From IMG/VR virus record IMGVR_UViG_2711768004_000002: DNA of 25,337 bases. One strand, 5' to 3'. Positions 4,600 through 24,226 of the stretch are shown here, one piece after another (within the stretch, counting starts at the first letter, position 1; each line of letters starts with the position of its first letter). This DNA comes from a virus. Taxonomy: Duplodnaviria; Heunggongvirae; Uroviricota; Caudoviricetes. The notes under the pieces are model-generated. The model was given only the letters and a program-made list of their open reading frames with translations, was not told where the DNA came from and made no database searches. The position numbers and the translations under genes are program-made.

Positions 4600-5116
4600 T
4601 CAGAATTTATAACCGACACCCACGATGAAACCGTCAGTGCGCCAGAGACGTGTTGCTGTGGCGACCGTCATCACTTCCGGTCAGCACATCGTGCGTTTTC
4701 CCCTTATTGTCAGTTACGCGGATATAATCCCCGGAAAAAGTCGACACACGGCTGTAAGCCACACCCGCCATCGCATACGCGCTGAACCATTCATTCACGC
4801 GCACAGACGGCCCCGCCATCACGCTGAACCAGCGGTTACGCACGGAATCTTCATGCCAGCGGGTATCGCTGTAACGGGTCAGCTGGCGATTCTTGTCTCC
4901 TGCATAGCTGAATGACGTCACCAGCCCCAGCGTATCCGTAAACTCATAACGGTATTTCACGTTAATCCCGTTCAGATCATCACTGCCGGGAACGTTGGTC
5001 CGGGCATGAAGATACCCCGCGCTCAGCGTGGACTGATGTTCAGACGCCCATGCAGGCGCACCGGATACGGCCAGGCAAATGGCTGCGGACAAAATGGCTG
5101 CACAAACTTTACGCAT
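4600..5116 (-). pseudogene. lom: lom-family (PagC/Ail/OmpX-type) outer membrane protein gene, frameshifted
   Basis: ORF 4634-5116 (160 aa, MRKVCAAILSAAICLAVSGAPAWA signal-like N-terminus) stops after ...SNTSLAH. The conserved Lom C-terminus WRTDGFIVGVGYKF followed by a stop (4600-4602) is present immediately downstream in a different frame. 4600-5116 is 517 nt, not a multiple of 3. Confidence 0.6.
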
Positions 5117-5186: not shown

Positions 5187-8100
5187 TCAACGAATACTGA
5201 TGCCGGAAGCCGCTTTTTTGGTCACAATCACCGTACAGTCGGTGATATTGCCTGCCCCCTGATTGCCTTTCTGGAAAATCTTAAACTCCAGAGTGACGCT
5301 ACCACCACCACTAGGCATATCAATAACTGCACTGTAACTACCGGGAATGGCCCCTTTAGTTTCTCTGGATGCGATTAATACGCCGTTTTTGCGAACTTCA
5401 AAACCATAACCCGTGTATCGCGTGCCTCCTGGGTTATTTCCGCTCCCCGGATCGTCATACGCTATACCGTTAAAAATAATGGGCGGAATAATAATCTGGC
5501 GGTCAAAGTTATGATCATCGCTTATGGTGACTGTAACCGTCCCGTTTGGTGTTTCCGTGTTACCCCACGTACCAGCCTGTTTCGGAAATGATTTGGATAC
5601 AGCTTTAACGAAGTCACCTCTGACCTGAGTCGCCTCCAGCATGCCCTTAATCGTACAGTTTTCATTTACCGTGACATTGTTGAGCGTCCCGGCGTTCGCA
5701 TTCACACTGCCACTGATATCCGCATTTTTAGCGGTCAGCTTTCCGTCCGGAGTCAGGGAAAATGCCGATGGATTTCCACCGCTGGTAATGGTGGGGGCCG
5801 TCAGGCGTTTCAGGAACACGTCGTTCATGAATATCTGATCGCCCTGACCAACAAACATCGGTTTTGTGTTGCCATTCGCAGGATTAACCATCGCAATCCT
5901 GTCCGCCGCCAGCAGCACCTGACTCTGCATGCCGTCAGGGGTGTTCTCAATACCGGCACCAATACCCGCGATATAAAGGCGTCCGTCCTGCATCTGCTGC
6001 AGCTTCACAGCCCACATGCTGTTCAGGTTATTATTTGTATCAACCTGAACCTTCTGTATCTGCTGAATTGCCGCACTCTGGTCTTCCAGTTTCTTATTGA
6101 CGGTCTGCGTGATTTCATTGCTGACATCCGTAATGGACGTCCTGATTTCAGCCAGGTCAGGCGCAAGCTGACCGTTATCAATCTGCGTCCACAGCTCCTG
6201 AGCCAGATGGGTTTTCCCTATCTCGCCTTTGAAAAAATCCAGATAACCGGATGCATCATCACTCGGCTGACCAACAGCCTCCACGAATGCCGATTTGCCA
6301 ACGGTGTTCACACTGCGGATATAAAAGTAATAATCATGGCCCGGTTTGATATTGATACTGGCGGCTATCCAGTACAGCGCCGTGCCAAGATAGCGTGCTG
6401 TGGTTTCAACCTGCCTGATATCCGCAATCCGCTTTTCCGAGAACCAGAACTCAAACTGTACCGTCGGATCATAAACCGCAAGATGCGGCGTGGCGGTTAT
6501 CTGAAAATAGCCCGGCGTCAGCTCAATCCGCGACAGCGCTGCCGGTGCGGCAATCCGGAACGATACCGACGCCGGATCGCCCTGCTGCCCCCACGCATTT
6601 ACTGCCCGGACTGTCAGCCTGTAGTTCCCCAGCGCCAGTTGTGTGAAGCGGTAAGTGGTTTCCGTCGTCCGGGCCGTGCTGACCAGCCGCTCACTGCCGT
6701 CATCCGCTGTTACGGTCAGACGGAGCAGGAAGCTCACGCCCTTCACCACCTTCGGCGTGTCCCAGCGCGCCAGCACCTGATATTCCCCGCTGTCTGCGGT
6801 GACTTCGGCAGTCAGGTGCTGCACCGCTGGCGGCGTGACACCATTCACCGTGCCGCTCTGGTCGCCGTCAAAGTGCGCCCCGTTATCCACGATGGCTTCT
6901 TTTTCCGGCACATGCTGCACGGCGGTGATGGCATACGTGCCGTCGTCGTTCTCACGGATACTCACGCAGCGGAACAATCGCTGGTGCAGCGTCGGCAGCT
7001 TCAGCCCCCACACGCTGTATTCAGCAACACCGTCAGGAACACGGCTCACTTTTACCTTCACGCCGTCGGTGACGGACTGGACCTCCACGCTGACCGGATT
7101 CCCCTGCCCGTCAACCAGGCTTATCAGCGTGGTGCCGGAGGATGGCAGCGTGATTTCACGGTCGAGCGTCAGCGTCCGGGTCTGGCTGTTCACCGCCAGC
7201 ACGCGCCCGCCGGTGCGGATACCGGCATAGTCATCATCGCAGATTTCAATGACATCGCCCGGTACATGACGAAGCCCTTCAGCACCCACGCTGAAATCCA
7301 CGGTCTGCGTCTCCAGCAGTTCCGTTTTAATCAGCCACAGCCCGGCGCGGTGTGCCTGCCCCCGGCTGGTACAGCCAAAGGCATCCATCTTCGTGACGTT
7401 ACGACCGTAACGGACAATGGCCTGCGTATCCTCCACAAGCTCTGTCGCCGTCTCCCAGCCGTTATCCGGGTCAATCCAGTTCACCTCAACGGCATTATGG
7501 CGGTCTTTCAGGGCGCTGAAACTGTAGCGGAACGGCGCGCCATCATCCGGCATCACCACATTACTGCGGTTATAGGCCCACACCTTATCCGACTGTCGGT
7601 CCTGCACGAACGTCAGCGTCTGCCCGTTCCATACCGGCATACAGCGCATCGCCGAGCAGAAATCACTGAGCACATCCCACGCCTTGCGCTGTGTGGTCAG
7701 CCAGGCATTACAGGTGATGCGCGGCTCCGTGCTGCCAAAGCCGTCCGGCACCGACTGGTCACAGTACTGGCCGATGACATACAGCGCCCATTTATCCACA
7801 TCTGCCGCACCAAGACGTTTCCCCATGCCATAGCGCGGATGGGTCAGCATATCCCACAGACACCAGGCCATGTTGTTGCTGTATGCCGGTTTTAACGTTC
7901 CGTCCCAGATACCGCTGTATTGCCGCGTCTGCGGATTATAGTTCGACGGCACCTGCAGAATGCGCCCGCGAAGATGATAATTACGGCTCACCTGCTGGCT
8001 GCCGAACTGCTCCGAATCCACCTGTACGCCGACCAGTGCCGTGTTCGGGTAGCACTGTTTCACATCGATGATTTCGGTGTATGACGACCAGAGCGTTTTG

Positions 8101-8686
8101 TTCTGCAGCTGGTCTGTGGTGCTGTCCGGCGTCATTCTGCGCATCCGGATANNNNNNNNNNNNNNNNNNNNNNNNNNNNNNNNNNNNNNNNNNNNNNNNN
8201 NNNNNNNNNNNNNNNNNNNNNNNNNNNNNNNNNNNNNNNNNNNNNNNNNNNNNNNNNNNNNNNNNNNNNNNNNNNNNNNNNNNNNNNNNNNNNNNNNNNN
8301 NNNNNNNNNNNNNNNNNNNNNNNNNNNNNNNNNNNNNNNNNNNNNNNNNNNNNNNNNNNNNNNNNNNNNNNNNNNNNNNNNNNNNNNNNNNNNNNNNNNN
8401 NTTTCACTTCCGTACCCAGCACCGTCTCGGAGCCGGAGGATTCAAATCCCTCCGGCGGTGACTGCTCCTGCTCACCTGCCCGGAACACCACCGTGACGCC
8501 GGAGATGTTGGTATTCCCCTCACTGTCCAGCACCGGCGTACTGTTCAGCAGCACGCTTTTTAATCCATCCACCGGACCTTCAACCGGCCCTTCGCTGATG
8601 GCATCGATCACACTCAGCAGCTGCGTGGACTTCAGGTTGTCCTTCGCTTCGCGCGGGGTATGCCCCTTACTGCTGCCTTTACCCAT
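5187..8686 (-). CDS. J: tail tip / host specificity protein J (central tail fibre); spans the N run at 8152-8401
   Basis: N-terminal ORF 8132-8686 ([34 protein letters not shown]...) and the 985-aa ORF 5187-8144 both match lambda J as I recall it over most of their length. The last few hundred residues differ from lambda. Total length and frame across the gap are unverifiable. Confidence 0.9.
8152..8401. other. run of N (assembly gap or masked sequence)
   Basis: 250 consecutive n characters in the sequence. Confidence 0.99.
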
Positions 8687-19774: not shown

Positions 19775-23455
<3,681 letters not shown>

Positions 23456-23481
<26 letters not shown>

Positions 23482-24001
23482 TCAGCAACCCCGGTATCAG
23501 TTCATCCAGCGCGGCTGCTTTGTTCATGGCTTTGATGATATCCCGTTTCAGGAAATCAACATGTCGGTTTTCCAGTTCCGGAAAACGCCGCTGCACCGAC
23601 AGGGGGATCCCGTCGAGAATACTGGCAATTTCACCTGCGATCCGCGACAGCACGAAAGTACAGAATGCGGTTTCCACCACTTCAGCGGAGTCTCTGGCAT
23701 TTTTCAGCTCCTGTGCGTCGGCCTGCGCACGCGTAAGTCGATGGCGTTCGTACTCAATAGTCCCTGGCTGGAGATCTGTCTCGCTGGCCTGCCGCAGTTC
23801 TTCAACTTCCCGGCGCAGCTTTTCGTTCTCAATTTCAGCATCCCTTTCGGCATACCATCTTATAACGGCGGCAGAGTCATAAAGCACCTCATTACCCTTG
23901 CCACCGCCTCGCAGAACGGGCATTCCCTGTTCCTGCCAGTTCTGAATGGTACGGATACTCGCACCGAAAATGTCAGCCAGCTGCTTTTTGTTGACTTCCA
24001 T
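23456..24001 (-). CDS. Nu1: terminase small subunit Nu1
   Basis: 181-aa ORF (MEVNKKQLADIFGASIRTIQNWQEQGMPVLRGGGKGNEVLYDSAAV...) matching lambda Nu1. Its 3' end overlaps the start of A. Confidence 0.95.
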
Positions 24002-24019: not shown

Positions 24020-24200
24020 AAACAGAGAAAGGAAACGACAGAGGCCAAAAAGCCCGTTTTCAGCACCTGTCGTTTCCTTTCTTTTCAGGGGGTGTTTTAA
24101 ATAAAAACATTAGGTTACGGCGAAGAAGAACGGAAACGCCTTAAACCGGAAAATTGTCATAAATAGCGAAAACCCGCGCGCCTTCCGCCCCGTAACCTGT
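24020..24200 (-). other. cos region (cosB terminase-binding region plus cosN-equivalent sequence)
   Basis: 24040-24178 is the reverse complement of the lambda left-end sequence ...CGCGGGTTTTCGCTATTTATGA(A/C)AATTTTCCGGTTTAAGGCGTTTCCGTTCTTCTTCG. 24191-24220 matches the lambda right end (CGTAACCTGTCGGAT..CCGGAAAGGACCC). The 12 nt between them (24179-24190) is where the cohesive end maps. Confidence 0.75.
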
Positions 24201-24226
24201 CGGATCGCCGGAAAGGACCCGCAAAA

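Follow-up and report, generated by a model that had tools for sequence, protein, structure and literature searches.

A recurrent right-half variant of the lambda-type cohesive-end site in Escherichia prophages and phage-plasmids

The window, by which we mean the whole 25,337-nt stretch of viral DNA analysed here (IMG/VR record IMGVR_UViG_2711768004_000002), carries a lambda-type cos whose 12-bp cohesive-end sequence, cosN, departs from that of lambda in its right half. Judging by sequence comparison, this cosN, GGGCGGAAGGCG, is very probably a functional natural allele that circulates in the lambda-like prophages of Escherichia and Shigella and in N15-like phage-plasmids with lambda-type head genes. 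It implies no new mechanism and would be an ordinary right-half polymorphism. An earlier note on this DNA had called a changed nicking site unexpected next to lambda-like Nu1 and A proteins. The published genetics of cosN removes this surprise, since bp 7-12 tolerate mutation (PMC4669245).

The cohesive-end sequence and the other cos subsites

The cosN 12-mer lies at 24179-24190 on the minus strand. The plus strand reads CGCCTTCCGCCC at these positions, and the minus strand, which has the lambda orientation, runs ...CCGACAGGTTACG / GGGCGGAAGGCG / CGCGGGTTTTCGCTATTTATGACAATTTTCC... across the junction. The site was read from the sequence and aligned to lambda, 434, Perceval and PhiR46_1. The canonical lambdoid overhang GGGCGGCGACCT, present in lambda, 434 and Perceval, is not the one at this site, which matches it at 7 of 12 positions. 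Positions 1-6 and 11 are the same and the mismatches fall at 7, 8, 9, 10 and 12, in agreement with the five differences counted in the earlier note. The relatives lambda (DE3), PhiR26_1, 2H10 and Kati, aligned to the window, all have GGGCGGCGACCT. The left half GGGCGG and a CG pair at each nick are present (...TTACG/GGGCGGAAGGCG/CGCGGG), as in a lambda-type cos. With changes in bp 7-12 only, the window falls into the class of right-half cosN polymorphisms of the N15/phiD326 and Gifsy-1 type.

Five changes within 6 bp, between flanks that are otherwise identical, amount to a discrete replacement and cannot come from background divergence of the ordinary kind. An origin by local inversion of CGACCT was considered and found unconvincing, since the reverse complement AGGTCG matches AAGGCG at 4 of 6 positions. 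The hexamer AAGGCG of the right half (window 24179-24184) also stands at lambda bp 49-54, on the left edge of R3 (24137-24142), and we judge this 6-mer identity to be coincidental. A full-text literature search for GGGCGGAAGGCG and its complement returned no phage paper, and the exact 12-mer gave only papers on plants and Streptomyces. The allele appears to be identical to none that we found described, and the N15 cosN is a different sequence.

The flanks proved as lambda-like as the earlier note had said. Over 70 bp the left flank and the right end of phage 434 are 100% identical, and the right flank (bp 13-120) is the same as in the isolated phage Perceval save at bp 35. We mapped the cos subsites onto the window through alignments with the annotated phage 434 record OL657226. 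The CG pairs at the top-strand nick (lambda bp -2, -1; window 24191-24192, minus strand) and at the bottom-strand nick (lambda bp 13, 14; 24177-24178, minus strand) are both conserved, following the published rule (PMC4669245). The cosQ heptamer GGGTCCT, the packaging termination signal, lies at 24214-24220 on the minus strand (bp -30 to -24). It is identical to the heptamer annotated in OL657226, and its distance to cosN equals that in phage 434.

On the other side of cosN, the cosB elements R3, I1, R2 and R1 follow each other in this order and at lambda spacing, and then comes Nu1. All were placed on the minus strand by the 434 annotation and alignment. R3, a Nu1 binding site, is identical to lambda (AGGCGTTTCCGTTCTT, 24126-24141), and so are R2 (AAGAAAGGAAACGACA, 24068-24083) and R1 (TGTCGTTTCCTTTCTC, 24025-24040). 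The IHF site I1 (TAACCTAATGTTT, 24105-24117) differs from lambda by T78C at window 24113, a change which it has in common with the isolated phage Perceval. The R2-R1 spacer (24053-24056) has a 1-nt deletion relative to lambda which is also found in 434 and Perceval, and the Nu1 ATG at 24001 corresponds to bp 190 as in these two phages (lambda bp 191). Since the deletion is present in both phages and the I1 change in Perceval, we regard the two as tolerated polymorphisms. The substitution which the earlier note had seen in the adjacent cosB-aligned sequence is real. It is an A to C change at lambda bp 35 (window 24156, minus strand, by alignment), a minor polymorphism in the I2 region of the spacer between cosN and R3. 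C35 was found in 7 of the 33 IMG/VR contigs with the variant allele and in one contig with standard cos (L102). Judged by every sequence criterion tested, the site is a lambda-type cos.

Occurrence of the allele

The exact 31-mer across the variant was found in 14 IMG/VR contigs, and GGGCGGAAGGCG with lambda-like flanks of either type in 33. We scanned IMG/VR for lambda-flanked 12-mers with a base other than T at position 12. The listing, with no sign of truncation, has 49 contigs: 33 with GGGCGGAAGGCG, 13 with GGGCGTCAGGCG and one each with GGGCGGCGACCG, GGGCGGCAGGCG and GGGCGTCAGACG. Positions 1-5 are invariant among these 49 sites and the variation lies in positions 6-12, which agrees with the published variability of the right half. 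The first 120 lambda-flanked IMG/VR sites served as an unbiased sample, and 116 of the 119 extracted were lambda-type.

Complete genomes were searched with a 52-nt probe in which any 28-nt seed is forced to span the GGAA at positions 5-8. It matched 159 of 5,426 complete E. coli genomes, at 154 chromosomal places and 16 on plasmids. For comparison, a lambda-like cos region of whatever type is present in 4,387 complete E. coli genomes. The probe also matched 23 PLSDB plasmids from E. coli, Shigella sonnei, E. albertii and E. fergusonii, all of them predicted to be non-mobilizable and mostly 42-48 kb in size. Two deposited phage genomes carry the allele, PhiR46_1 and YDC107_1. YDC107_1 belongs by its classification to the N15-like phage-plasmids (Ravinvirus), and PhiR46_1 was deposited with ECOR13 as host, its plaque-forming ability being taken from the record alone. 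Literature searches on the PhiR phage names, the accessions and ECOR13 did not find a PhiR46_1 paper. The allele is a minority among lambda-flanked sites, yet it is well established. The earlier note had said that its view would fall if this exact variant were widespread among functional phages. This largely applies: the allele is widespread in prophages and phage-plasmids, and the phages themselves are represented by the two deposited genomes. Cos finders keyed to the canonical 12-mer miss the allele, which is carried by about 3% of E. coli genomes.

A scan of genome contigs with an N12 pattern gave mostly chance matches in unrelated GC-rich genomes. The real cos sites that it recovered came from Escherichia, Shigella and a few assemblies that are likely contaminated, and all were lambda-type, so that the scan does not bear on the variant; the species range given above is that of the PLSDB plasmids. 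The unrelated assemblies with lambda-type cos were Raphidiopsis brookii D9 (L164), Aeromicrobium sp. PE09-221 (L166) and the 39.8-kb 'plasmid unnamed3' of Alicyclobacillus fastidiosus (L167). All three match the DE3 sequence over the overlap, printed as 40 bp to the left and about 70 bp to the right of cosN, and contamination by lambda or by a cosmid or fosmid vector is the most likely source.

One IMG/VR contig of 56 kb (3300045988_113976) has two copies of the variant cos, reported on opposite strands (L181 and L185). Their flanks are identical over the full stretches compared, about 3 kb to the left and about 6 kb to the right. The pair could be a fold-back assembly artefact, or it could come from an N15-like linear plasmid whose hairpin telomere was read through.

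Predicted cleavage of the variant site and alternative explanations

In lambda, the assembly of Nu1 and IHF on cosB positions gpA, whose nicks lie 12 bp apart (PMC4669245, PMC9026076). Feiss et al. (2015, PLoS One; PMC4669245) report, citing their reference 60, that many bp 7-12 mutations have minimal effect. The symmetric changes in the left half are described there as severe: G2C reduces the yield by a factor of about ten, and C11G is without phenotype (PMC4669245, citing reference 60). The same account attributes this functional asymmetry to the proximity of the right half to cosB (PMC4669245, citing reference 34), and describes bottom-strand nicking as anchored by cosB-bound Nu1 (PMC4669245, citing earlier work). 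Natural cosN variants differ from lambda at positions 9 and 12 (N15 and phiD326) or at 8, 9 and 11 (Gifsy-1); cosQ and the nick-flanking CG pairs are conserved (PMC4669245). Feiss et al. concluded that bp 7-12 are free of sequence selection (PMC4669245). In their comparison of lambda and N15 cosN, lambda TerL is reported to show no cosN specificity, with equal yields on cosN-lambda and cosN-N15 (PMC4669245). The published tolerance tests consulted changed fewer positions at once, for instance positions 9 and 12 of N15, whereas the window has a block of five changes, with bp 10 and 12 beside the nick among them. The allele is in this sense a natural five-base test of the published asymmetry, with the left half constrained and the right half free.

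On the window, Nu1 dimers would bind R3, R2 and R1 of cosB while IHF would bend the DNA at I1. The anchored gpA would make its bottom-strand nick at the bp 12/13 junction and its top-strand nick at the bp -1/1 junction, probably at about normal efficiency at these usual positions. The product would be a 12-nt 5' overhang, predicted to be GGGCGGAAGGCG at the left end and its complement CGCCTTCCGCCC at the right end. Since nicking in bp 7-12 rests on anchoring and not on base contacts, a nearly unchanged lambda terminase could use such a site. The extra CG at bp 11-12 need not shift the nick, since N15 has a CG at the same place and yet an annotated 12-nt extension. Both ends of a chromosome would be cut from the same allele, so they would be perfectly complementary and cyclization would be normal. 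The nearest-neighbour value for the annealed variant ends is -17.8 kcal/mol vs -18.2 kcal/mol for the lambda ends, with GC at 10 of 12 positions in both, and end-annealing stability is predicted to be unaltered.

The flanks of the variant patch are found with standard cosN too, in Perceval, PhiR47_2 and O26 prophages. The allele itself has left flanks of at least two types (GGTTACG and GGCTACG), and it was seen with two Nu1 types. Its presence in more than one flank and Nu1 background means that it has moved between them by recombination. Chromosomes with mismatched ends can yield progeny of both alleles (PMC4669245), and they offer a possible route by which a cosN allele would be joined to a foreign flank exactly at the nick. 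This transfer should be inefficient with five mismatches.

The genes that would act on the site are complete. Nu1, the small terminase (23456-24001, minus strand), has 181 aa and is 98.3% identical to lambda Nu1. The large terminase A, with its nuclease and ATPase (21556-23481, minus strand), has 641 aa and is 99.4% identical to lambda gpA. Both are full length and adjacent, as in the lambda family, so that their description as lambda-like was correct. From each retrieved locus of sufficient length we took the Nu1 and gpA sequences downstream of cos, and we compared the two proteins position by position for variant and standard cos. None of the residues was fixed with the allele. A Nu1 identical to that of the window adjoins standard cos in 6 IMG/VR contigs, and four distinct Nu1 proteins, this one among them, were found with both cos alleles. 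The gpAs of variant-cos loci are 1-5 aa away from some standard-cos gpA and the differing positions are inconsistent. The gpA of the window is 2 aa from its nearest standard-cos counterpart (L404R and I459V). Essentially the same terminase is, by these protein comparisons, paired with both sites.

The structural genes W, B, C, D, E, FI, FII, Z, U, V, G, H, M, L, K and I are also full length, with 94-100% identity to lambda. Two runs of N interrupt the window, one of 304 nt at 1110-1413 in the tail-fibre assembly gene tfa and one of 250 nt at 8152-8401 in J. The split of J into two open reading frames (8132-8686 and 5187-8144) was considered as a frameshift and a sign of a defect, and rejected because the N run at 8152-8401 causes it. 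The split of tfa in the list of open reading frames was likewise rejected as real and put down to masking by the run at 1110-1413. A lom-like open reading frame on the minus strand (window 4603-5116) encodes 160 aa vs 206 aa in lambda Lom, with 38% identity, and the last 14 Lom residues are found in another frame at 4603-4644. This suggests that the lom homologue is frameshifted or truncated.

Could the terminase have been retuned together with its site? In that case changes in the nuclease region of gpA would shift the nicking specificity, and the window has two candidates relative to lambda, L404R and T466I. The comparison of A with lambda suggested in the earlier note does show these residues, and I466 is enriched with the allele (16 of 23 variant-cos loci vs 9 of 47 standard-cos loci). 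Neither residue is exclusive to variant cos, however: T466 is retained in 7 of the 23 variant-cos loci, and 5 standard-cos loci have R404. In some cases a variant-cos gpA is just one residue away from a standard-cos gpA, the change being A117T alone, V377L alone or the common polymorphism I459V alone. The equal yields of lambda TerL on two cosN types also speak against a need for co-adaptation, and we regard it as very unlikely. The enrichment of I466 could reflect linkage or mild adaptation; it is most simply explained by physical linkage, as the residue is encoded about 2 kb from cos. The earlier note had also considered that the cos might be degenerate and its prophage packaging-defective; the site would then be non-cleavable and lie in a decaying chromosomal element. 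The window is prophage-like, its search as a 25-kb query against complete genomes gave no identical match (the best was about 97%), and the lom-like gene seems truncated. Decay should be private and scattered, whereas one and the same 6-bp patch is found in hundreds of elements whose flanks vary, among them extrachromosomal phage-plasmids and the two phage records. A near-full-length match to lambda gpA was found in 23 of the 24 variant-cos loci of sufficient reach. In the window the terminase, head and tail genes are full length, the other cos subsites are intact and J only looks broken because of its run of N. We consider decay highly improbable, and a lambda-like prophage without a GGGCGGCGACCT end gives no ground for calling it packaging-defective. 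Error, raised in the same note, would mean a fault of sequencing or assembly in the source record, and the tight clustering of the changes in a GC-rich stretch would fit it. The exact allele is present in the 14 and 33 contigs, the 159 genomes and the 23 plasmids described above, from many laboratories and platforms, which leaves error with a negligible probability and excludes it. The reading of the earlier note that gains support from this recurrence and from the intact neighbouring subsites is that of a genuine variant cos.

Selection might also maintain the allele as a separate cohesive-end compatibility group, in which chromosomes with mixed ends cannot cyclize and hybrids with lambda-type phages are limited. 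Variant ends should anneal poorly with lambda-type ends: 7 of 12 bases would pair between the two end types, and about -8 of the roughly -18 kcal/mol comes from the shared GGGCGG block. A 2-base mismatch between the ends was enough to lower the yield of viable phage about fourfold (PMC4669245), and there is a related allele family that ends in AGGCG. On the other hand, the same Nu1 and cosB haplotypes are freely paired with both alleles, so that exchange near cos is frequent and not blocked, which argues against a strong barrier. The literature takes bp 7-12 as simply unconstrained (PMC4669245), and neutral drift followed by recombinational spread is sufficient for the data. Selection for such a group is in our opinion quite unlikely. 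The related proposal, that AAGGCG-type ends define a second compatibility group among the lambda-like phages and phage-plasmids of Escherichia, with a partial barrier to hybrids and rare exchange of cosN across the nicks, is also unlikely. If it were true, a chromosome cut from lambda and variant sites, mismatched at 5 of 12 positions, would fail to cyclize, and the reproductive-isolation element would be just 6 bp long and measurable as such. A functional natural allele is the explanation that we prefer. Near-isogenic cos pairs, the window or PhiR46_1 vs Perceval or 434, are suited to tests of mismatch tolerance.

Comparison with known cos sites

With lambda the window shares cosQ, both CG pairs at the nicks, bp 1-6 and 11 of the cohesive end, R3, R2, R1 and the spacing of the subsites. 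It differs in bp 7, 8, 9, 10 and 12 of the cohesive end, in bp 35, in one base of I1 and in the 1-nt deletion between R2 and R1.

The cosN of N15 and phiD326, GGGCGGCGTCCG, is like the window allele a right-half-only variant with G at position 12 and CG at bp 11-12, and despite this CG a 12-nt 5' extension is annotated in the N15 record. From lambda the N15 site departs at two positions (9 and 12), the window allele at five. The cosB of N15 is also its own, with one R3, and its TerL is about 65% identical to that of lambda, whereas the window has a lambda-type cosB and terminase. The cosN of the Salmonella phage Gifsy-1 has right-half-only changes like the window by its published description (PMC4669245). 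The positions and bases of these changes, as published, differ from those of the window.

Among the IMG/VR alleles, GGGCGGCAGGCG is one step (C7A) from that of the window. GGGCGGCAGGCG and GGGCGTCAGGCG end in AGGCG (bp 8-12) like the window allele, and in GGGCGGCAGGCG, GGGCGTCAGGCG and GGGCGTCAGACG bp 1-5 are unchanged, as they are in the window. Unlike the window allele, GGGCGTCAGGCG (13 contigs, for example L120) alters bp 6 too. The window allele belongs to a small series, with GGGCGGCAGGCG one step off and GGGCGTCAGGCG as a sister allele. GGGCGTCAGGCG often adjoins a different cosB (CTATTTATGAGCATTTTAAGGG), and the Nu1 proteins of this group go down to about 35% identity to lambda. Its presence next to a different cosB and Nu1 shows that cosN alleles are common to more than one packaging-specificity group.
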